The notes beneath the pieces were generated by a model. The model did no database searches. It had not been told where the DNA came from and saw nothing but the letters and a program-made list of their open reading frames with translations. From Lachnospiraceae bacterium (GTDB lineage: Bacteria; Bacillota; Clostridia; Lachnospirales; Lachnospiraceae), in assembly GCA_024695665.1 (NCBI GenBank), contig JAILHT010000003.1, positions 10,870 through 74,869 on the forward strand: 64,000 nucleotides of DNA, in the 5' to 3' direction. Every line of letters begins with the position of its first letter. Position 1 is the first letter of the stretch. Both the position numbers and the translations under genes were made by a program. Positions 6,463 through 24,843 of the stretch are shown here, piece after piece.

Positions 6463-7875
6463 CTAATTATTAAATGCTCCAAAAGGATCTGTCTCTGTGC
6501 TTCCACCATTGTTGGCTTCACCGTTGTCATCGGAATCATCCTCTCCGGGTTTTCCCCCTTCTGGTTCACTTCCCGACCAAGGCTGTTCCTTATCACTTGA
6601 AGGTCCCTCTGCCTGCGATGATGAATCATCGTCGGAGTCTTCTGACTCTTCTGTCGTCTCTGACTCAGAATCGGTAGAGCTGGTCAAAGTTACACTGTAT
6701 TCACTTGACTCGTATGTACCGTTATTGTTGACCCATACTGTGAGTGTGACAACATCTCCCACTGCGTGAGCTGTAACTTTCTCTTTCAATTCCTCCATTG
6801 TAGAGACATCCTCACCGTCTATCTGAGAGATAACCATTCCGGATGTAAGTCCGGCTGCCTCAGCACCGCTTCCCTCGACAATGTTTGCAATATATACACC
6901 CTCCGGCATATTATAAGTAACTGCAACATCTGAAGATACCGCAACACCATAGATTCCAAGGTATGCTGTAGGTGTTTCCTCTACATATCCGTTCTGGATA
7001 AGTTCTTCAAGAATAGGTTTCGCTGTTGAGATAGGTATTGCAAATCCCATTCCTTCAACCGAAGTATCCGAATACTTTGATGAGTTGATACCGATAACCT
7101 CACCGGTCTCATTCAAAAGCGCTCCACCACTGTTTCCCGGATTTATCGCTGCATCTGTCTGAATGAGATAACTTGTGGTTTGCTCTCCGGTTGTCTCATC
7201 TGTAGATGTGACTTCACGATTGAGTGCGCTTATTACTCCTGTTGTAACCGACTGTCCGTATCCTAAGGCATTTCCGATTGCTATAGCCGAATCTCCTACG
7301 GAAAGCGAATCCGAATCACCCAAAGTAGCTACTGCTATAGCATTCAATGTATCCTCGCTCAAATCTTCGAGTTTTACCATTATTACAGCAAGATCTGTGC
7401 TTGCATCAGTTCCTCTGACCTCAGCTGTCGCAGTCGACTCGTCGTTGAACTGAACCGTAACTGTCTGTGCGCCTTCAACAACATGATTGTTTGTTGCAAT
7501 GTAGAGATATGTGTCGTCCTGCTTTATTATGATTCCGCTTCCAGCACCTTCCGACTCATATTCCATCGTCTGGCCGAAAAAGCTCTGCACCTCCTCGATG
7601 CTCATTGTTGTGATTGCAACTATACTTGGCATTACACTGTCCACTACATCAGATATATTTGTCGATGTGACAGTGGCACTTGTTGTAGTAGCCTGTATTG
7701 TATTTGATGAAGATGTTGTATCTTCTGCCTCGCTCTCTGCAGTCTGCGTCGTGCTTCCCGTAAGTTTCGATAATGCGTAGGAACTTCCTTCAAATCCGAC
7801 TCCTGCCACAAGACCAAAAACCAAAGCTAAAGCCGCACACTTCGTGAGCTTTGAACCGAAACTTGTTTTACTCAT
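6463..7875 (-). CDS. htrA: HtrA/DegP-family serine protease with PDZ domain and a long acidic C-terminal tail
   Basis: 470 aa. N-terminal TM anchor, catalytic motifs TNNHVV / DLAVI / GNSGGAL, a PDZ region, then ~75 aa of D/E/S-rich low complexity. Confidence 0.9.
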   Translation of the reverse strand: MSKTSFGSKLTKCAALALVFGLVAGVGFEGSSYALSKLTGSTTQTAESEAEDTTSSSNTIQATTTSATVTSTNISDVVDSVMPSIVAITTMSIEEVQSFFGQTMEYESEGAGSGIIIKQDDTYLYIATNNHVVEGAQTVTVQFNDESTATAEVRGTDASTDLAVIMVKLEDLSEDTLNAIAVATLGDSDSLSVGDSAIAIGNALGYGQSVTTGVISALNREVTSTDETTGEQTTSYLIQTDAAINPGNSGGALLNETGEVIGINSSKYSDTSVEGMGFAIPISTAKPILEELIQNGYVEETPTAYLGIYGVAVSSDVAVTYNMPEGVYIANIVEGSGAEAAGLTSGMVISQIDGEDVSTMEELKEKVTAHAVGDVVTLTVWVNNNGTYESSEYSVTLTSSTDSESETTEESEDSDDDSSSQAEGPSSDKEQPWSGSEPEGGKPGEDDSDDNGEANNGGSTETDPFGAFNN

Positions 7876-16025: not shown

Positions 16026-17246
16026 TTATAAAAGTCTTATCGTTAAGATCAGCTTATCCAAATCTTCGTAATAATATGCTTTTGTCATATCCGGGCAAAA
16101 ATCCTTTATATGAAATTCCACAAGAAGATAATTGACCGCAGCATCATATGCCTCCTGCGTCATAAATTTCAATGAAACACTCTCATCTTGGTTTGTCACG
16201 GCCTCGTTTAACACACTGCCCAAAATGCCTTCATCAAAAGTATCAAAGCAACGGTTTTCGTGAACAAAATAGGTATATGTTGTATCTTCCGCTATAGGTA
16301 TATCGAAGGTGCTCGTTATTGTGTAATCGGCAGAAATATCAGAATCCGTCATACATAGGTAACTATAATTTATTATCGAGGCGCTGTTCTCCGTCTCGGT
16401 GTCGGTAAAAGTTGTATTTGCCCAGGTGACATCAACATGATAAAAACTTCCTTCTATATTTATCATATTCCATGCGTGCAGTTCCTCCATTCCCATACCG
16501 GTAACAACTATAGATTGAATACCGCATTTTGTTGCAAGATACTGCAGCGCATTCGCAAATCCCTGGCAGACTGTGGACCTGTTTAAAAACACACTCACTA
16601 TGGTCTGATTGTCCTTGGCATTCTTGTCATAGGTGACATTCGATGCCAACAGTGTGTAAAGTATTTTTAGTTTTGTATAATCATCGGCCTCTGCAGGTAC
16701 GGCATCAGTATAACCGCTCACAGCCGAATCTATCTGTTCCTGAATAGAATCCCTCTCGGTCTTCGTCATACTGTATCCCGGTGTGAACTCTATTCCTACA
16801 ACCATTCCTCCTATTGTATACTCAGTATAACTGTATCCCGATACCCAAAAAAGCTCCCCGTGATCGGCCAGCACCCGATTGAATACATCATCCAGTTTTT
16901 CCGGACTTCTCGTCTGAATGGCCACATTTGAATCATGATTCATTATCGTTGTCAGTATTTCATTGTAAATAGTTCTGTCATCATCTCCGAGCATCGAATA
17001 CTCGTAACAACCATCTGAAATGCTCTCTGTCTCTTTAAAATCGAGAAACGGTGCAACTTCGCTTTCGCTCTCCTCCTCCGAAGCGCTTTCGCTCTCCCCT
17101 TCCGATTCTTGAAATTTTCCCTCTTCCAAAGCGTCAAGATAGCTTTCCATATCCGGTTTCCTGCAACCATTCACAAACAGAAGTGCGATTAAGATTGCTG
17201 CGGAGATTCTCACCGGCTTTGATCTAAGGATTGCTTTTATTATCAT
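16026..17246 (-). CDS. transglutaminase-like (Cys-His-Asp core) putative lipoprotein
   Basis: 406 aa. Signal peptide ending LFVNGC (lipobox-like), an acidic linker (ESEGESESASEEESESE), and core motifs CQGFANALQY...HAWNMI...VDVTW. Confidence 0.75.
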   Translation of the reverse strand: MIIKAILRSKPVRISAAILIALLFVNGCRKPDMESYLDALEEGKFQESEGESESASEEESESEVAPFLDFKETESISDGCYEYSMLGDDDRTIYNEILTTIMNHDSNVAIQTRSPEKLDDVFNRVLADHGELFWVSGYSYTEYTIGGMVVGIEFTPGYSMTKTERDSIQEQIDSAVSGYTDAVPAEADDYTKLKILYTLLASNVTYDKNAKDNQTIVSVFLNRSTVCQGFANALQYLATKCGIQSIVVTGMGMEELHAWNMINIEGSFYHVDVTWANTTFTDTETENSASIINYSYLCMTDSDISADYTITSTFDIPIAEDTTYTYFVHENRCFDTFDEGILGSVLNEAVTNQDESVSLKFMTQEAYDAAVNYLLVEFHIKDFCPDMTKAYYYEDLDKLILTIRLL

Positions 17247-17351
17247 TGAGTTTTAACCCCTTAACTGTTATTCTTATATTTGATTTCAAAAACACTTTTT
17301 GCTTTTGTATATTCAATTATAAATATAAACCAGCATAAAAAAAGGAGCAAT

Positions 17352-17858
17352 ATGCTGTCACTTCAAATAAAAAATGTTAAACAATTTATGATCGATCTGC
17401 TAAAGAGCGAATATTTTGACAATTTCCTGCTGGATGAGGCTTATATAAACACAAATGCCTCATTTTATATCGACGGAACAATACAAAACGGTTTCTACAC
17501 TGATGAGGACAAAGAGGAGCTCTCTTTATCGGGGTTAAAAAAGCTTCCGTATTCCTATTTAAAGAACAACTGCTTTGAACTCATAAAAGGAAAACGCACC
17601 CCCGTATCGTTTAAATTTGTATTTCTTCTGCCGAAACAGACGGTCGACGAGATAAAAAAATCCACCGCCATAAGTTTTGATGATGCATCCGTCACAAATA
17701 TGTATTTTATATGCAGTTATAACGATGGAAAGCTGTTCCTTACAGACGGTATTTCATACCAAACTTTCGTACCGGGACATGAATTGGACAAGGCGCTTGA
17801 CAACTACTTGAAAACCTTTCTTAATAAACTGCAAATAGACTATGATGAGGCCATTTAA
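17352..17858 (+). CDS. conserved hypothetical cytoplasmic protein (possibly DUF5721-like)
   Basis: ATG 17352 is preceded by AAAGGAG, whereas the track start at 17280 is a TTG without an RBS. 168 aa with no recognisable catalytic motif. The family assignment is from memory only. Confidence 0.4.
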   Translation: MLSLQIKNVKQFMIDLLKSEYFDNFLLDEAYINTNASFYIDGTIQNGFYTDEDKEELSLSGLKKLPYSYLKNNCFELIKGKRTPVSFKFVFLLPKQTVDEIKKSTAISFDDASVTNMYFICSYNDGKLFLTDGISYQTFVPGHELDKALDNYLKTFLNKLQIDYDEAI

Positions 17859-17891: not shown

Positions 17892-17936
17892 TTTTTTGTG
17901 CAAATTGTACGCACATTAATTTTTTGGAGGTACGTT

Positions 17937-18140
17937 ATGAGTAAGGGTACTGTTAAATGGTTCAACAATCAGAAGGGCTTTGGTTTCATCTCAGATGAGG
18001 CAGGAAATGACATTTTCGTTCATTTCTCAGGCATCACAATGGATGGATTTAAGACGCTTGAGCAGGGGGCTCCGGTAGAGTATGAAGTTGTTGACGGAAC
18101 AAAAGGTCCTCAGGCCGTAAATGTAAGCGTAGTTAGATAA
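17937..18140 (+). CDS. cold-shock protein (CspA family)
   Basis: [18 protein letters not shown]...DIFVHFS contains the RNP1 and RNP2 motifs. 67 aa. GGAGG RBS. The track start at 17898 is a GTG extension. Confidence 0.95.
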
Positions 18141-18161
18141 TTGAACTACAAAAACAAAACT

Positions 18162-18198
18162 AGGCTGTCGTCGGTATATCCGAACGGCAGCCTTTTTA
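18162..18198 (+). terminator. rho-independent terminator of csp
   Basis: AGGCTGTCG...CGGCAGCCT stem followed by TTTTT. Confidence 0.7.
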
Positions 18199-18269: not shown

Positions 18270-20540
18270 CTATTCATTTAAATACATATCTTCAAAACGC
18301 GCTATTTCCATTGACTTTGAGAAGAAGTTTCCCGAGAAGATATCACATCCCACTCGTTTTAAAAATTTCATCTGATCATAAGTCTCGACGCCCTTACATG
18401 CAACGGTTATGCCCAGCTCTTTTGACATTTGTATCATTGCGGTAAGAATACTTCTCGCTCTCTCATCATCTGCATTTCCCAAAAATCCGATATCGAGTTT
18501 TAATACGTTTAATGTTGCATATTTTAATAGTCTAAGTGAGGACTCTCCCGTTCCAAAATCTGACATTGCAACATCTATTCCATATCCCTGAAAACGCTTA
18601 ATTACATCTGCCTGTCTGTCAACCTCAGTCATGACAGAGTCCTCGGAAATGGTTACCTTTATATTCTTGGAAGGTATCTCGTATTTTTCACAAAGTTCGG
18701 TTATGACCTCAAACGAATCCATCATATACAAATCCTTGGTGGAAATCTTTAATGCCAAAAACAAATCGTCTCTTCCCATATCGATCCATCTTCTCAGATA
18801 GACACAGGCCTTTTCCCACACATATCGGTCAAGCCTGTATGTGAGTCCTTTTTCCTCAAGTACCGGGACAAATCCCGATTCCGTTATGAGCCCCTTTTCC
18901 GGATGCATCCAACATGCGGATATCTCGCCACCCTTGATATCTCCTGCGGAGTCGGTCTGCGGTTCGACAATCAGACCAATCTGTCCGGTCTCAATCGCAT
19001 CATAAATCTCTGTTTCAATGTTCTGAGCCTGAAGCATGTCTTCTGTGACAGTCTCATCATAAAATGCCACTACTCTGTCTCTGGACCCTTTTATTGTCTG
19101 TATTGCAGCAAAAGCATTGTCACACATTACCTGAGGGTTTACATTTTTGTCATTGATCCTGTAAATACCGGCATAAAATCTTATATTATACGCATACTCT
19201 TTGGCAAGCTTTATCTCATTTACCCTCTCTTTGTTAAACATATTCATAGAGAATCGTTCAGCAGGCATAAGAAGCGCAAAACGATCTGCCCCGAGATATC
19301 CGTATACGTAACCTTTTATCGCATATTCTTTAAAAAGGGATGCGACAAAACGGAGAACCTCATCACCGGCCTCCTGGCCAAACAGTTTATTTATCAACCT
19401 GAATCTGTAAATATCAATTCCAAGCAAAAGATAATCTTTGTCCGGGAACGCCTCAAGCTCCTCTTTCACCCTGATATAGAAATAGTCTTTTCTGTATAAC
19501 CCTGTAAGTGGGTCATGCATCGTATTATATCTTTCCTGCTCACGCTTGATAACATCTTTTGTCTCATCCTTAAGCATATAGAGATTACCGATATAATTGC
19601 CTTCTTTATCGGTTATACGATTGAATTTCATATCATAATAGATTCTCTCGCCGTCTTCCGTGTCGAGATAATTGTGAATCTGGCGTACATCCATCTTCTC
19701 GTACTGGTTTGATATTCTCCAGTTCTCAATGATCATATTGAGTTCCGGTGTCTTTGCCAGAAAATTCTTTGCGCTGGCATTTGAGAAAATCCTTCTTCCG
19801 TCATCTTCCTCTATAACAATACCGTATACCGACTTGTCAACAACCAGTCCCATCGTGTTGTTTATAAGCCCTTTCGGGATATATCTTATACAGAAATAAT
19901 AAAGTACGGCAGCGACTACTGTATAAAGCGGAACTGACAGATTAAACTCCCATCCGTAGAAAATATAACATCCGTCAAAGAAGCCCACCGCGGTCATAAC
20001 AACCAGCATAAAGAAAAACTTTTTTCTGTATATTGCAGCGGAAAGAAAAGTCTTATAAACCATACAGAACACGCTCATGAGTATAATTATATACGCCCAG
20101 GTAAGATGCGTGAAAAATGCAGGTTTAAGTTCCATTACGTACCAGAAAAAATCTCCACCCTCAATGCATTTTTTCAGTGTAAACAGATGTCCCGTAAACA
20201 TATTTAAGACAAGCGATGCCGAATCCAGCATGATAAGGCTTATCATAATATTCTTTTTTAGGAGCGGATGATCGGGTTCTCCGATATAATCCAGACTGAA
20301 CAATAACAGATAATATCCCAGCCATTCCGTGGCTACAAGATACAGGCAATATGCAACGGACGACAAATAGATCTGCGTGCTCAAAGCTATGATGACATGG
20401 CAGATCTCAACTATAAGTCCGGCACCCATCAATTTGAGCACACTATTTGGAAAATATTGTCTTCGGTTTTTGATGCTGCTTACAAGTCCGATTAAGACGG
20501 ATATGGCAACAATAAGTAATATAAGAAAAGATACTCTCAA
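18270..20540 (-). CDS. polytopic membrane protein with degenerate GGDEF and degenerate EAL domains
   Basis: 756 aa with an N-terminal ~230 aa multi-TM region. The GGDEF position reads GADRF (YGYLGADRFALL). In the EAL domain, EAL reads EIS, DDFGTG reads SDFGTG, EGVE reads KGVE and QG reads SG, while the KxD (KLD) motif is kept. TTG start 20540 overlaps the clpX stop and is preceded by GAGGG. Confidence 0.8.
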   Translation of the reverse strand: MRVSFLILLIVAISVLIGLVSSIKNRRQYFPNSVLKLMGAGLIVEICHVIIALSTQIYLSSVAYCLYLVATEWLGYYLLLFSLDYIGEPDHPLLKKNIMISLIMLDSASLVLNMFTGHLFTLKKCIEGGDFFWYVMELKPAFFTHLTWAYIIILMSVFCMVYKTFLSAAIYRKKFFFMLVVMTAVGFFDGCYIFYGWEFNLSVPLYTVVAAVLYYFCIRYIPKGLINNTMGLVVDKSVYGIVIEEDDGRRIFSNASAKNFLAKTPELNMIIENWRISNQYEKMDVRQIHNYLDTEDGERIYYDMKFNRITDKEGNYIGNLYMLKDETKDVIKREQERYNTMHDPLTGLYRKDYFYIRVKEELEAFPDKDYLLLGIDIYRFRLINKLFGQEAGDEVLRFVASLFKEYAIKGYVYGYLGADRFALLMPAERFSMNMFNKERVNEIKLAKEYAYNIRFYAGIYRINDKNVNPQVMCDNAFAAIQTIKGSRDRVVAFYDETVTEDMLQAQNIETEIYDAIETGQIGLIVEPQTDSAGDIKGGEISACWMHPEKGLITESGFVPVLEEKGLTYRLDRYVWEKACVYLRRWIDMGRDDLFLALKISTKDLYMMDSFEVITELCEKYEIPSKNIKVTISEDSVMTEVDRQADVIKRFQGYGIDVAMSDFGTGESSLRLLKYATLNVLKLDIGFLGNADDERARSILTAMIQMSKELGITVACKGVETYDQMKFLKRVGCDIFSGNFFSKSMEIARFEDMYLNE

Positions 20541-22063
20541 CTTACGCCCTCTATCTGAGGCACACCTCTCATCTGTATAAGAGGTGACCCGGTTCCCTCT
20601 ATGTATTCTTTCGTAATAGTTACTGTTCCTATATTATCATCCTTTGGAATCTCGTACATGATATCCAACATGTACTCTTCCAATATAGCCCTGAGTGCTC
20701 GGGCTCCAACCTTCTTCTCCTTGGCCTTTGCGGCTATAACATGAAGAGCCTCCTCATCAAATCTGAGTTCCACCTCGTCCATTGCGAGAAGTTTTTTATA
20801 CTGACTTAATATAGCATTTTTTGGCTTTGAAAGAATCTCAACCAGCATATCTTCCGTGAGTTCTTCGAGTGCAAAAAGAACAGGCAGTCTTCCCAAAAAT
20901 TCAGGAATCATTCCGTACTTTCTGACATCCTCAACAACGACCTTTGTCTGCAAATTCGGCTCGTCATCGTATTTATCCTTCAAATCCGCTCTGAAACCTA
21001 TAGAAGCCTCCTTGTTGAGTCTCTCTTTTATAATCTCCTCCAGATCAGGAAATGCTCCTCCGCAGATAAACAGTATATTCTTTGTATCTACAGTAACCAT
21101 CGGAACCATGGCATTCTTGCTACTGGCTCCCACAGGAACCTCAACAAGGGAACCTTCAAGGAGTTTTAACATTCCCTGCTGAACAGACTCTCCGCTCACA
21201 TCCCTCTGGTTTGTATTCTTCTTTTTGGCAATCTTATCTATCTCATCGATAAATATGATTCCCTGCTCAGCTTTCTCAACATCATTGTCTGCGGCAGCCA
21301 AAAGCTTGCTGACAACACTTTCTATATCATCACCGATATATCCGGCTTCCGTGAGTGAAGTGGCATCCGTTATCGCAAGCGGAACATTGAGAATTCTCGC
21401 AAGTGTCTTTACCAAATATGTCTTTCCCGAACCGGTCGGTCCTATCATAAGCATATTGGATTTCTCAATCTCTATTCCGTCTTCATCCCTGCTGCTTGCA
21501 ATTCTCTTGTAATGATTGTATACGGCAACAGACATTACCTTCTTTGCCTGCTCCTGTCCGATGACATACTCGTCCAAAGCTGCTTTAATCTTGTGTGGTG
21601 CCGGCATATCTTTAAGCTCAATGATAGGATGAATAGGTTCATCTTTTTTATGTGTCTTAACCTTCGGACGGTTCGGCATAAGTCCCTGAAGATCACTCAG
21701 GTTTATCATGCTGATATTTGGCATTCTTCTGTGGGAATCCGACTTTTTGTCCTTGTCGTTATCCTTCTTGTCCGGTGTGTCCTCCCCGGAATCTGAGGCC
21801 GTTTCAATCTCGGTGCTCTCATTATTTTCTTTTTTTGAGTAATCTGATGCACTGCCCGTTGGCTCCGTGTTCGCAAATCCCATAGTTTGCGGATCCATTC
21901 CGAATCCCATTCCCGGGAAGCCCGCTGACTGCATTGTATCAAGTGTTGACTGCATACAATCACTGCATATGCATATATTTCCGGGTATCTTTATAAGCTT
22001 GCCACACTGGCTCTCCGGTCTACGGCAGATGTAGCAAAACTCCTCATTATCTATTTCTGACAT
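20537..22063 (-). CDS. clpX: ATP-dependent Clp protease ATP-binding subunit ClpX (paralogue with ~85-aa low-complexity insert after the zinc-binding domain)
   Basis: 508 aa. C4 zinc-binding domain (CYIC...CSDC), Walker A GPTGSGKT, Walker B IFIDEIDK, pore loop GYIG, IGF ClpP-docking loop (ASIGFRA). The insert (GMGFGMDPQ...KKDNDKDKKSD...) sits between the zinc-binding domain and ...LDEYVIGQ. AAGGAG RBS. Confidence 0.9.
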   Translation of the reverse strand: MSEIDNEEFCYICRRPESQCGKLIKIPGNICICSDCMQSTLDTMQSAGFPGMGFGMDPQTMGFANTEPTGSASDYSKKENNESTEIETASDSGEDTPDKKDNDKDKKSDSHRRMPNISMINLSDLQGLMPNRPKVKTHKKDEPIHPIIELKDMPAPHKIKAALDEYVIGQEQAKKVMSVAVYNHYKRIASSRDEDGIEIEKSNMLMIGPTGSGKTYLVKTLARILNVPLAITDATSLTEAGYIGDDIESVVSKLLAAADNDVEKAEQGIIFIDEIDKIAKKKNTNQRDVSGESVQQGMLKLLEGSLVEVPVGASSKNAMVPMVTVDTKNILFICGGAFPDLEEIIKERLNKEASIGFRADLKDKYDDEPNLQTKVVVEDVRKYGMIPEFLGRLPVLFALEELTEDMLVEILSKPKNAILSQYKKLLAMDEVELRFDEEALHVIAAKAKEKKVGARALRAILEEYMLDIMYEIPKDDNIGTVTITKEYIEGTGSPLIQMRGVPQIEGVS

Positions 22064-22152
22064 AATAACTCCTTAATTCACTCTTAATGTTTCTATTATG
22101 AACAAGAATTATTCAATTGGCAAGTTTTTGAAAATTAAAAAATTATTAAAGT

Positions 22153-23076
22153 TTAAATTCTGTACAAAGCCACAATAATAGGCATTGTTATGATACATCC
22201 CAGAGTTGTAAAGACATTGATTGCGCCCGCATAATCCGCATCTTTTTCATATACCACGGACATCTGGGTTATTGTCGAAGCAGACGGTGTTGTGGTCGCC
22301 AAAAGTGTTATGAGAAGAACTGTCTCACCCTCCGGAATAAGTGACGCGACATTGGTAAACTTTATAATTGAAAGAACTATCAACGGTACAACTATAAGCC
22401 TTAGTGCGACAATAAGCGGTAACCTCTTGTATATAAGCATATTCTTAAGCGGTTTTGATCCTATTATCATACCTGTGACAAGCATAGCTGTAGGTCCGAT
22501 CATAGAACTCAACGATTCCATCGTATCCTGCAGAGGCCCCGGGAATCTGAATCCTGTCAAAAATATGATTATACCCAGGAAAACTGATATCATATTGACG
22601 TTTAAGAGAATCTTTTTTATGTCTATTCCCTTCTCCTCCCTAATCGTGGATTTTGCATGACTCCACAGGAAGAAAAGTTGGACGGAAACATATGCGCAGG
22701 AATAGACAACCCACTCGCTTCCCAGTACAGCGGAAACTATCGGAATGATAAGATTTGCCGCGTTTGAATATATTACGGAAAGAATCTCAACCGAGTCCAT
22801 CTTCAATACTTTTCTCATCGGAATAGTAAGCAACAACAGAATCGCATGTATCGCAAGCGCCGCCGAAAAAGCCATAAGCAGTCCGCTCACAACCTCATCC
22901 GTCACATCCACCTCAAAAGAGGTGATTATTGCGCACGGTGTAGCTATATAGAGTACAATAGCAGACAGAACCTTGCTGTCCTCCGATTTCAGCACACCGA
23001 CTTTCACTATGACCGCCCCTAAAAAAAGGATAAGAAACAGCGAAAATATTTTTTCAATCAACAAAAGTGTTATCAT
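22153..23076 (-). CDS. AEC (auxin efflux carrier) family transporter
   Basis: 307 aa with ~10 predicted TM helices. The N-terminus (IFSLFLILFLGAVIVKVGVL...) is typical of the AEC/MalP-like family. Confidence 0.7.
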   Translation of the reverse strand: MITLLLIEKIFSLFLILFLGAVIVKVGVLKSEDSKVLSAIVLYIATPCAIITSFEVDVTDEVVSGLLMAFSAALAIHAILLLLTIPMRKVLKMDSVEILSVIYSNAANLIIPIVSAVLGSEWVVYSCAYVSVQLFFLWSHAKSTIREEKGIDIKKILLNVNMISVFLGIIIFLTGFRFPGPLQDTMESLSSMIGPTAMLVTGMIIGSKPLKNMLIYKRLPLIVALRLIVVPLIVLSIIKFTNVASLIPEGETVLLITLLATTTPSASTITQMSVVYEKDADYAGAINVFTTLGCIITMPIIVALYRI

Positions 23077-23202
23077 TCATAAACCCCCACAAAAACCCTT
23101 TTTATCCCGGGAGAAACGTATATCTAAACAGCAGATACTTATCCCGGCTGAGATAAAATATACCTCGAAAATTGATAACAATCTCCGAGGTAATAAATGT
23201 AT

Positions 23203-24843
23203 CTAGTTGTCGTTCTCGTCGTCCTCAGACATAAGATATACAGATCTCTTTCTGGCCATCTCATCGCTCTCAAGATACTCATCATAAGTTGTAACCTTAT
23301 CGATTATGGAACCGTCCGGCATAAACTCTATTATTCTGTTTGCGGTTGTCTGTACAACCTGGTGATCTCTCGACGCAAAAAGGAGTACGCCCGGGAACTT
23401 TATAAGTCCGTTGTTGAGTGCTGTTATAGACTCCATGTCGAGGTGGTCGGTAGGCTCATCTAAGATGAGAACATTAGAAGCCTCTATCATCATTCTTGAG
23501 AGAAGCACTCTGACCTTCTCTCCTCCGGAGAGAACTCTCATCTTCTTCACACCGTCTTCTCCCGCAAAAAGCATACGTCCTAGGAATCCTCTTACATATG
23601 TCGCATCCTTTATCTCAGAGAACTGTGTAAGCCAGTCTACAATTGTAAGACCGTTGTCAAAGATTGCTGTGTTATCCTTCGGGAAATATGACTGTGATGT
23701 GGTTACTCCCCATTTGTAAGTTCCCTCATCAGGTTCCATCTCCCCTGCAAGAATCTTAAAAAGTGTTGTCTTTGCAAACTCGTTTCCGCCTACAAAGCCC
23801 ACCTTGTCATCATGTCCAAGAATAAACGAAACATTGTTTAATACTTTTACCCCGTCGATTGTCTTTGATATCCCGTCAACGGTGAGTACCTCATTTCCTA
23901 TCTCTCTTCCCGGTCTGAAATCAATATACGGATATTTTCTGCTTGAAGGTCTAATCTCTTCAAGCTCTATTTTTTCAAGCGCTTTCTTTCTCGAAGTAGC
24001 CTGTTTTGATTTTGAAGCATTTGCGGAGAATCTTGAAATAAAGTCCTGAAGTTCCTTTATCTTCTCCTCTTTCTTCTTGTTTGCCTCCTTCATCTGACGA
24101 ACCATGAGCTGTGAACTCTCATACCAGAAATCATAATTTCCTGCATAGAGCTGTATCTTTCCATAGTCAATGTCCGCAATGTTTGTACAAACCTTATTTA
24201 AGAAATATCTGTCATGGCTGACAACGATGACTGTATTGTCAAAATTTATAAGGAATTCCTCAAGCCAACCGATTGCATCGAGATCGAGGTGGTTGGTAGG
24301 CTCATCCAAAAGAAGAATATCCGGATTTCCAAAAAGTGCCTGCGCGAGAAGGACTTTGACCTTGAGCGCTGAAGGCATATCTGACATAAGCGTGTAATGG
24401 TCTTCCTGCGGAACTCCAAGTCCGTTCAAAAGAGTTGCGGCATCGGCCTCTGCATTCCATCCGTCCATCTCTGCGAACTCTGCCTCGAGTTCTGAAGCAC
24501 GGATTCCGTCTTCATCAGAGAAATCTTCCTTCATGTAGATGGCTTCCTTTTCCTTCATGACATCATAGAGTCTCTTATTTCCCATTATAACGGTGTCAAG
24601 AACCGGATAAGCATCATATTTGAAATGGTCCTGCTGCAGGAAGGACATTCTCTGTCCCGGAGTGATAATGACATCTCCGCTTGTAGGTTCAAGCTGTCCG
24701 GAAAGAATCTTAAGGAAGGTAGATTTTCCCGCACCGTTTGCTCCGATCATTCCGTAGCAGTTTCCCTCTGTGAATTTTATGTTTACATCCTCAAAAAGAG
24801 CTTTTTTACCAAGTCTAAGTGTAATATTGCTGGCTTGTATCAT
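23203..24843 (-). CDS. ABC-F family ATPase (YbiT-like; two NBDs, no TMD)
   Basis: 546 aa. NBD1 has Walker A GANGAGKST and a non-canonical signature (MPSALKVKVLLAQALF) as in YbiT-type proteins. NBD2 has an atypical Walker A (GGNEFAKTT), signature LSGGEK and Walker B LILDEPTDHLD. Confidence 0.85.
   Translation of the reverse strand: MIQASNITLRLGKKALFEDVNIKFTEGNCYGMIGANGAGKSTFLKILSGQLEPTSGDVIITPGQRMSFLQQDHFKYDAYPVLDTVIMGNKRLYDVMKEKEAIYMKEDFSDEDGIRASELEAEFAEMDGWNAEADAATLLNGLGVPQEDHYTLMSDMPSALKVKVLLAQALFGNPDILLLDEPTNHLDLDAIGWLEEFLINFDNTVIVVSHDRYFLNKVCTNIADIDYGKIQLYAGNYDFWYESSQLMVRQMKEANKKKEEKIKELQDFISRFSANASKSKQATSRKKALEKIELEEIRPSSRKYPYIDFRPGREIGNEVLTVDGISKTIDGVKVLNNVSFILGHDDKVGFVGGNEFAKTTLFKILAGEMEPDEGTYKWGVTTSQSYFPKDNTAIFDNGLTIVDWLTQFSEIKDATYVRGFLGRMLFAGEDGVKKMRVLSGGEKVRVLLSRMMIEASNVLILDEPTDHLDMESITALNNGLIKFPGVLLFASRDHQVVQTTANRIIEFMPDGSIIDKVTTYDEYLESDEMARKRSVYLMSEDDENDN

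Follow-up and report, generated by a model that had tools for sequence, protein, structure and literature searches.

The window analysed here, a 64,000-nt stretch of a Lachnospiraceae genome (GCA_024695665.1, contig JAILHT010000003.1, positions 10,870 to 74,869), encodes on its reverse strand a second copy of the unfoldase ClpX (clpX2, 20537-22063(-)) and, overlapping its 3' end, a membrane protein with GGDEF and EAL domains (the partner gene, 18270-20540(-)). The results point, with a probability of roughly 0.58, to a two-gene operon in which a family-wide ClpX2 acts on private substrates, while the pairing with the partner is a genus-level arrangement and does not represent a conserved module linking ClpX to cyclic di-GMP (c-di-GMP).

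Both reading frames had been picked out in an earlier reading of the DNA without database searches (the sequence-only reading) and are present. Stop codons included, they specify a 508-aa ClpX (P0001) and a 756-aa protein with a seven-transmembrane (7TM), a PAS-like, a GGDEF and an EAL domain (P0002, the partner). We use ClpX2 for P0001 and its orthologues and ClpX1 for canonical ClpX; G000 is the window's own genome and G001 the only other genome of the same genus in the collection.

ClpX2 is a true second copy with the motifs of ClpX

ClpX2 exceeds the cut-offs of both NCBIfam ClpX models (NF003745, 546.2 bits with a cut-off of 359; TIGR00382, 480.7 bits with a cut-off of 370.75) and contains the Pfam domains zf-C4_ClpX, AAA_2 and ClpB_D2-small. 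Since both copies pass the equivalog cut-off, annotation pipelines would call each of them ClpX and hide the paralogy. Aligned with ClpX1 of the same genome, to which it is 50% identical, ClpX2 retains all functional motifs that had been named from the sequence: Cys10, Cys13, Cys33 and Cys36, Walker A (GPTGSGKT, residues 208-215), the pore-1 loop (GYIG, 241-244), Walker B (IIFIDEIDK, 269-277), the IGF loop (SIGFRA, IGF at 355-357), the arginine finger (PEFLGR) and sensor II (GARALR). Missing is the RKH loop: GGRKH of ClpX1 is replaced by GASSKN, and the alignments place the loop PVGASSKNAMVP (residues 310-321, 21101-21136(-)) at this position.

The C4 zinc-binding N-domain (residues 8-47, 21923-22042(-)) is defined by PF06689 (27.6 bits, cut-off 27), by conservation, with the four cysteines invariant across 44 ClpX2 sequences, and by the predicted local distance difference test (pLDDT) of the AlphaFold model, which reaches 75-84 in the zinc finger. 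The AAA+ module, delimited by Pfam and alignments (20540-21613(-)) and including a shortened pore-2 loop, the arginine finger and sensor II, is modelled well, the mean pLDDT of the whole model (44 sequences) being 72.3. ClpX2 matches the Listeria ClpX structure 6sfw over residues 144-499 with an E-value of 1.5e-113.

In the same genome tig, clpP, a 426-aa clpX and lon lie in a row on contig C16, and clpX2 is thus a true second copy, as the sequence-only reading had supposed when it suggested looking for a canonical gene near clpP and tig. The position beside clpP (tig-clpP-clpX) is held by ClpX1 and not by clpX2. One canonical ClpP is encoded in this genome (334.6 bits).

A Lachnospiraceae-specific ClpX subfamily with its own signature

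ClpX2 is a conserved, Lachnospiraceae-specific ClpX subfamily with a defined signature. A second ClpX with 60-88% identity to the window's protein was found in 35 of 36 other Lachnospiraceae genomes, whose canonical ClpX is about 52-57% identical to it; the sole genome in which none was found, G032, is 67% complete. Outside the family, 24 genomes that each represent a different family of the order gave no second ClpX at E <= 1e-60 (one match in 22, none in two). An even sample of the class gave the same picture, with two ClpX matches in 3/3 family genomes and a second ClpX in none of the 116 genomes outside the family (one match in 115, none in one); one more genome of the sample was left unscored. 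A scan of species-representative genomes with the window's ClpX2 returned 565 relatives, and the best 80 of these carry mostly Lachnospiraceae-type titles (Blautia, Roseburia, Dorea, Fusicatenibacter, Agathobacter), some being generic or naming other families.

The signature was read from an alignment of 107 complete ClpX2 frames (from 110 loci) and 20 ClpX1 frames (from 21 loci). Pore-1 reads GYIGDD in all 107 ClpX2 sequences and GYVGED in all 20 ClpX1 sequences. The GGRKH motif, present in 20/20 ClpX1, occurs in 0/107 ClpX2, which have a loop of the G-x-x-S-K-N-A-M-V-P type instead. Sensor II is GARALR in 106/107 ClpX2 and GARGLR in 19/20 ClpX1. The pore-2 loop of ClpX2 is shorter by two residues, and the position equivalent to Thr199, which is threonine in 20/20 ClpX1, is occupied by Q (82), S (14), T (5), N (4), H (1) or A (1) in the 107 ClpX2 sequences. 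Walker motifs, arginine finger and IGF loop are retained, with (I/V/M)GF in all common variants listed, and the zinc finger has a conserved sequence of its own, distinct from that of ClpX1.

In a maximum-likelihood tree of the AAA+ part a long branch (0.83 + 0.81 changes per column; Shimodaira-Hasegawa-like approximate likelihood ratio support of 100) separates the ClpX2 rows from the rest. The family's ClpX1 cluster with other ClpX1, and all 25 ClpX1 rows are separate from the 24 ClpX2 rows. The tree comprises 49 rows, namely 24 ClpX2 (of 30 relatives' loci), 13 ClpX1 from the family, 7 from the order and 5 of the 8 class-level ClpX; only rows with both a complete frame and the anchor motif were admitted.

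Within the genus ClpX2 differs at only three positions that are at least 90% conserved elsewhere (K138H, E413K, K420S), and the changes in its zinc finger are mild (K39S, F41L). We sought a clear imprint of the new partner among these genus-specific changes of ClpX2 and saw none.

The genome G006 has a third ClpX-like frame (contig C9:43291-44364(+)), 38% identical to ClpX2 and part of a 522-aa open frame, 5.6 kb from its clpX2.

The long linker is a trait of the subfamily

A disordered linker (residues 48-150, 21614-21922(-)), defined by predicted disorder and by linker statistics, joins the zinc finger to the AAA+ module; pLDDT is below 50 at residues 48-134 and 138-145. Measured from the last zinc-finger cysteine to the LDxYVIGQ motif, it comprises 125 aa in the window's ClpX2 and 35 aa in its own ClpX1. 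The difference of about 90 residues agrees with the extra 85 or so estimated from the sequence alone. The long linker is a trait of the ClpX2 subfamily and not of the window's gene alone: lengths are 67-150 aa (median 73, n=95) in ClpX2, 12 of the 107 sequences being omitted as the pattern did not fit them, and 32-40 aa (median 35, n=20) in ClpX1.

Three parts can be distinguished in ClpX2 linkers, a low-complexity segment of variable length, a PN(I/V)S(M/F)INLSDL motif, and a polybasic run (KKKK) followed by PAPHKIK. In the window's protein the order is a G/M-rich stretch, an acidic and K-rich low-complexity part, the motif in the form PNISMINLSDL, and the basic stretch. It is the low-complexity segment that is enlarged in this genus, by an acidic, Lys-rich run.

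The partner has lost EAL catalytic residues in this genome only

The partner protein begins with a HisKA_7TM-type membrane domain (residues 7-220, 19881-20522(-); PF16927, 44.3 bits, cut-off 28.6), followed by a weak Pfam PAS hit, a degenerate GGDEF domain (residues 341-484, 19089-19520(-); PF00990, 57.4 bits) and a degenerate EAL domain (residues 511-742, 18315-19010(-); PF00563, 158.2 bits). Its best matches are MorA (7.5e-41) and NCBIfam DibA (199.8 bits, below the cut-off of 980). In the alignment with MorA (4rnh), an active protein of the GGDEF-EAL type, the partner has GADRF (residues 417-421) in place of GGDEF, EISAC in place of EALxR, LALKIS with a change of Asn to Lys, TISE in place of ExxE, SDFGTG, KGVE, and SG in place of QG; the altered motifs listed in the sequence-only reading are all among these. 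The same alignment revealed no RxxD I-site in the partner five residues before the GGDEF motif, where it has IKGY. Thus, the description of the protein as doubly degenerate is correct for the window's own copy; the degeneracy of the EAL domain, however, does not extend to its orthologues.

To place the losses we aligned 24 GGDEF-EAL proteins from the family (the window's, that of G001 and 22 outgroup proteins) and scored ten conserved catalytic or metal-binding EAL positions (E, R, N, E, E, D, D, K, E, Q). Six of the ten are replaced in the window's protein (R543C, N598K, E630T, D660S, E716K, Q736S), leaving E539, E633, D661 and K681. Five of these columns (N598K, E630T, D660S, E716K, Q736S) are changed in the window's protein alone among the 24. 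The outgroup proteins hold all ten positions, except one with R for Q, and the G001 orthologue (756 aa, 58% identity) holds nine, R543 being replaced by Q. A third orthologue, P0004 (757 aa, 61% identity; motifs GDDHF and EILVQ), likewise keeps 9/10 and is intact like that of G001. The loss of catalytic residues in the partner's EAL domain is therefore specific to the lineage of this genome.

The sequence divergence follows the same pattern. In the EAL domain the window's protein has a mean identity of 31.0% to the 22 others, compared to 39.1% for that of G001, and is the lower of the two in 22/22 comparisons. The GGDEF domain is without such skew (27.4% and 26.4%). The window's GGDEF domain has also lost residues kept in G001 (DID to DIY, ND to NK). 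Most of the 22 relatives likewise have a degenerate GGDEF motif. As the orthologues are intact in their EAL domain and most relatives are degenerate in GGDEF, the ancestral type is an EAL phosphodiesterase with a non-catalytic GGDEF domain. The partner is an ordinary member of its family with an unusual, recent loss of function.

More distant full-length relatives in G033 and G010 (28-30% identity) are not beside clpX2, and the G033 protein combines GGDRF with a canonical EAL set. The window's genome has 13 GGDEF/EAL genes, and genomes of relatives have up to 14. Two scans of metagenome contigs, in which the query was first the partner protein itself and then a 2-row alignment, yielded no relatives of the partner. 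A complex prediction for ClpX2 residues 1-150 with partner residues 330-756, run from our own alignments without controls and with an uncertain partner fold, gave no verdict (score 0.00, mark 0.32) and counts neither for nor against an interaction.

The gene junction and operon signals

Direct reading confirms the overlap of the two genes and the internal Shine-Dalgarno sequence that had been pointed out before. The TTG start of the partner gene (20540-20538) and the TGA stop of clpX2 (20539-20537), counted as having three bases in common, form a TTGA overlap (20537-20540(-)) in the junction sequence ...GAG GGC GTA AGT TGA. The GAGGG Shine-Dalgarno of the partner gene (20547-20551(-)) lies within the 3' end of clpX2, 6 nt from the TTG. 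The TTGA overlap is identical in G001, which has GAGGA at the place of GAGGG. Assembled DNA contigs from two public runs span the junction with 0 and 1 differences; both runs belong to one study, possibly the source of the assembly itself. A 4-nt overlap of stop and start is by itself a common gene arrangement.

The gap upstream of clpX2 (89 nt) holds a promoter-like site (TTGCCA, 17 nt spacer, CATAAT; 22095-22123(-)) with 10/12 consensus matches and, read directly, a Shine-Dalgarno sequence AAGGAG (22069-22074(-)) 5 nt ahead of the ATG. Such promoter-like sites, scored by consensus match only, are not strongly enriched (21 in the region compared to 14.0 +/- 3.7 in shuffles). Downstream of the partner gene, between it and a convergent cold-shock gene, folding reveals a terminator-like hairpin of 12 pairs with a U-rich tract (18150-18193(-); minimum free energy -18.3 kcal/mol, z -2.67), which a simple consensus terminator scan missed. 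At the junction itself there is no room for signals. Co-expression of clpX2 and the partner gene is plausible because of the promoter-like site and strong Shine-Dalgarno sequence before clpX2, the lack of room for signals at the junction and the hairpin after the partner gene. The co-expression put forward in the sequence-only reading is thus upheld as plausible, also by the overlap kept in G001. We infer that a joint function of ClpX2 and the partner is not obligatory.

One animal-gut metatranscriptome run (X5) contains two 151-nt contigs that match clpX2 without a difference over 20913-21186, and nothing that covers the junction or the partner gene. As these are assembled contigs, they demonstrate presence in an RNA library, from which neither transcription nor co-transcription follows.

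The source gene call starts the partner at Met38 (ATG, window 20429), giving a 719-aa form (P0003, MGAGL...). If this start were used, there would be no overlap and no translational coupling. We give this very little credence, as the TTG start is favoured by the 7TM profile, which begins at residue 7, by the conservation of the first 37 residues (21/37 identical to G001, the same level as in the remainder) and by the orthologues, which are 756 aa (G001) and, with the same N-terminus, 757 aa (P0004) long. In addition, GAGG as a Shine-Dalgarno sequence is found 6 nt before the TTG in both genomes.

The pairing is restricted to the genus

The bicistronic arrangement of clpX2 and the partner gene is a genus-level feature, kept in 2/2 genomes of the genus. 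In G001 a ClpX2 with 88% identity is followed by the partner orthologue with the same TTGA overlap. Beyond the 3' end of the operon both genomes have the same genes, in the window a cold-shock protein gene (17898-18140(+)) convergent with the partner gene, a DUF5721 gene (17280-17858(+)) and a gene for a transglutaminase-like lipoprotein (16026-17246(-)), while the genes upstream differ.

Conservation of the pair as neighbours in relatives, on which the sequence-only reading had made its interpretation depend, ends at the genus. Taking the largest frame within 1.5 kb as the downstream gene, GGDEF follows clpX2 in two of 30 relatives' loci, the window's own and that of G001, and in 0/28 others; the remaining loci have Peptidase_S8 (13), other families (12) or none (3). 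At further clpX2 loci, 0/72 immediate downstream genes contain GGDEF or EAL; these 72 include Peptidase_S8 (9), zinc-ribbon/DUF7575 (about 10), lspA (5), rpoD-like (4) and Na/H exchangers (3). A tblastn search with both domains across 80 loci (882 kb, within 6 kb of clpX2) gave one hit, in L074. With up to 14 GGDEF/EAL genes per genome, a rough estimate is that chance alone would give one such neighbour per 100 or so loci.

In G002 the DUF5721 gene lies convergent directly after clpX2, which suggests that the partner and cold-shock genes came between clpX2 and DUF5721 in this genus. The transglutaminase-like and DUF5721 neighbours look like remnants of an older synteny. A transglutaminase-like protein also adjoins clpX2 in L076.

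The usual upstream neighbour of clpX2 elsewhere is a membrane-anchored HtrA-like protease (Trypsin_2 + PDZ), found in 16/28 and 45/76 loci, many of which are from Blautia, so that the counts are not independent. In 6 of 7 HtrA-like proteins read, a low-complexity cytoplasmic tail of about 50-190 aa precedes a single membrane helix. The window has an HtrA-like gene at 6463-7875(-), on the same strand and 12.7 kb from clpX2. Signal peptidase I lies upstream of clpX2 in 4/76 loci. Directly downstream many genera have a subtilase of about 560 aa (L041, L042, L045, L048, L052, L055, L058-L060, L064, L069, L074, L076, L097, L098, L127, L134, L135, L139), Csp-like in L074, which is another Lachnospiraceae metagenome-assembled genome. 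Four of these subtilases, compared with the NCBIfam CspBA and CspC germination-protease models, reach 257-309 bits, below the cut-offs.

Discussion

ClpX2 most likely works as any ClpX does, with a zinc-finger N-domain that docks adaptors or substrates, an ATP-driven hexameric pore, and IGF loops that would engage ClpP. Unlike housekeeping ClpX it probably has substrates of its own, because the whole subfamily has exchanged the residues with which E. coli ClpX reads C-terminal degrons of the ssrA type, its N-domain sequence is distinct and conserved, and the tether is long, disordered and partly polybasic. The partner would be translationally coupled to clpX2 through the TTGA overlap, a coupling suggested by the arrangement of the codons. 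It appears to descend from EAL phosphodiesterases with a degenerate, presumably regulatory GGDEF domain, and its gene may have come between clpX2 and the convergent cold-shock and DUF5721 genes in the ancestor of the genus. Since five more EAL residues are lost in this species alone, the partner should neither make nor break c-di-GMP; it may serve as a sensor or scaffold without enzymatic activity, or may be a decaying enzyme.

Canonical ClpX (Listeria 6sfw, E. coli 6wr2) has the same zinc finger, AAA+ module and C-terminal small domain, and the same Walker A and B, pore-1 aromatic, pore-2, IGF loop, arginine finger and sensor II motifs. ClpX2 differs from it in being a second copy away from clpP, in lacking the RKH loop, in its GYIGDD pore-1, in a pore-2 loop that is two residues shorter and without the Thr, in its zinc-finger sequence, and in a linker that is 2-4 times longer. 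According to the accessible part of one study, E. coli ClpX contacts the ssrA degron through Tyr153/Val154, Thr199/Val202 and Arg228/His230, while human ClpX lacks the ssrA-recognition residues Thr199, Arg228 and His230 (PMC7652416). Mitochondrial (human) ClpX is therefore comparable to ClpX2, which is likewise without these degron-contact residues; in the available description, however, the mitochondrial insertion lies inside the AAA+ domain, whereas the additional residues of ClpX2 lie between zinc finger and AAA+ module. Multiple ClpX have been described in Myxococcus xanthus DK1622, where one clpX reportedly shares a transcript with clpP and additional copies stand isolated at other places in the genome (PMC11423568). 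The extra isolated copies resemble clpX2, in a different phylum, a likeness drawn from that partial description and not from sequence. The wording 'two ClpX' also occurs in the visible part of a paper on Actinoplanes missouriensis. In our literature search no publication on a second ClpX in Lachnospiraceae was found, the matches listed for 'ClpX2' or 'two clpX' concerning other organisms, and the subfamily seems undescribed in the literature searched.

The partner's relatives belong to the same class as the GGDEF-EAL phosphodiesterases with a degenerate GGDEF domain (MorA 4rnh, RbdA 5xgb, DosP). From these the partner differs by the loss of 6/10 conserved EAL residues, a set that the G001 orthologue, P0004 and 22 relatives keep. 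Receptor-type GGDEF-EAL proteins with non-catalytic domains are known. In LapD/FimX-type doubly degenerate receptors both domains are non-catalytic as in the partner, and LapD is also membrane-bound. The membrane part of LapD consists of periplasmic and HAMP domains, unlike the 7TM domain of the partner, which reaches 66.2 bits with the NCBIfam LapD model (cut-off 1020).

The sequence-only reading had proposed a c-di-GMP-responsive proteolysis module by analogy with PopA of Caulobacter. PopA is, in the accessible part of the source, a soluble PleD paralogue and response regulator that binds c-di-GMP at an RxxD I-site and delivers CtrA to ClpXP (PMC12564702). It shares with the partner a degenerate GGDEF A-site and links c-di-GMP to ClpXP; the partner, however, is anchored in the membrane by a 7TM domain and carries an EAL domain but neither a REC domain nor RxxD, and with IKGY at the I-site the analogy fails. 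It nevertheless deserves weighing that the partner might bind c-di-GMP and, serving as adaptor, anchor or gate, recruit ClpX2 to the membrane or regulate it there, so that ClpX2-ClpP proteolysis would respond to c-di-GMP or to a signal sensed by the 7TM domain. The translational coupling is kept in both genomes of the genus, both partner domains are non-catalytic here, like those of known receptor-type GGDEF-EAL proteins, the long flexible tether of ClpX2 with its polybasic stretch could reach a membrane partner, and PopA, on the evidence of the same partial source, is a precedent for c-di-GMP-controlled delivery to ClpXP. We consider this unlikely, because 28 other relatives' loci and 72 further clpX2 loci lack the pair, ClpX2 long predates the pairing and has hardly changed in the genus, and the orthologues keep an apparently competent EAL site, so that a receptor role would be new to one species; the missing RxxD site and REC domains add to this. 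Such a module is unsupported beyond synteny at genus level.

A broader proposal connects ClpX2 with the membrane in the whole family. ClpX2 might be a family-wide unfoldase for the cell envelope, secretion or the spore, brought to the membrane by its long polybasic tether, whose targets may be the long, disordered cytoplasmic tails of HtrA-like proteins and perhaps the precursors of Csp-like subtilases encoded beside clpX2 in most Lachnospiraceae; in this genus it would have been rewired to a non-catalytic 7TM sensor of the c-di-GMP type as membrane adaptor. We regard this as quite improbable. The partner might instead be a substrate of ClpX2-ClpP, its level being checked by extraction from the membrane and degradation. 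Co-expression of both genes from one operon would suit such a role. An envelope link is hinted at by the genes that usually flank clpX2 in other genomes, since their products are inserted in the membrane or exported (HtrA-like, signal peptidases, Csp-like subtilases). No ClpX degron, however, is recognised at either end of the protein, the C-termini being ...MYLNE and ...MYIND, and the pairing is not conserved outside the genus; we judge a substrate role very unlikely.

The reading we prefer, an operon of a family-wide ClpX2 with private substrates and a partner acquired at genus level, has to be set against several observations. The genus is represented by just two genomes in the collection, and the ClpX tree comes from a quick search and is unrooted, so that ClpX2 may go back to an old duplication or to transfer. 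ClpP docking and altered specificity of ClpX2 are deduced from motifs only. The overlap has outlasted the divergence of the partner to 58% identity, which would fit selection for co-expression. The partner is a full-length open frame with a 7TM domain 60% identical to that of G001, and not an obvious pseudogene; the lysines now at two metal-ligand sites (N598K, E716K) might in principle allow a nucleotide to be bound without metal. Finally, in L074 a soluble PAS-GGDEF-EAL gene (548 aa, L074:4256-5899(+)) ends 56 nt upstream of clpX2.

Few gut commensals are as abundant as the Lachnospiraceae. If our preferred reading is true, a family-wide second ClpX, in which the loops that read degrons are rewritten and the N-domain is distinct, would give these bacteria a private pathway of regulated proteolysis. 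The pair of ClpX1 and ClpX2 would offer a natural experiment on the role of the RKH and pore-2 loops in substrate choice. The genus-specific operon would be a small example of how an enzyme may become a non-catalytic signalling part, its link to proteolysis being unproven.

Additional features

Upstream of clpX2 a strong terminator-like hairpin of 14 pairs (23161-23192(-)) lies between an ABC-F gene (23203-24843) and a Mem_trans gene (22153-23076).

Elsewhere in the genome, contig C139 carries a divergent 235-aa ClpP-like gene (L008:1477-2184(-)) that reaches 83.6 bits with Pfam CLP_protease and 54.5 bits with TIGR00493 (cut-off 308.6). It shares 14 nt with an upstream gene for a 438-aa protein of unknown family (L008:2171-3487(-)) and could either supply an alternative peptidase partner or represent a mobile-element cassette.

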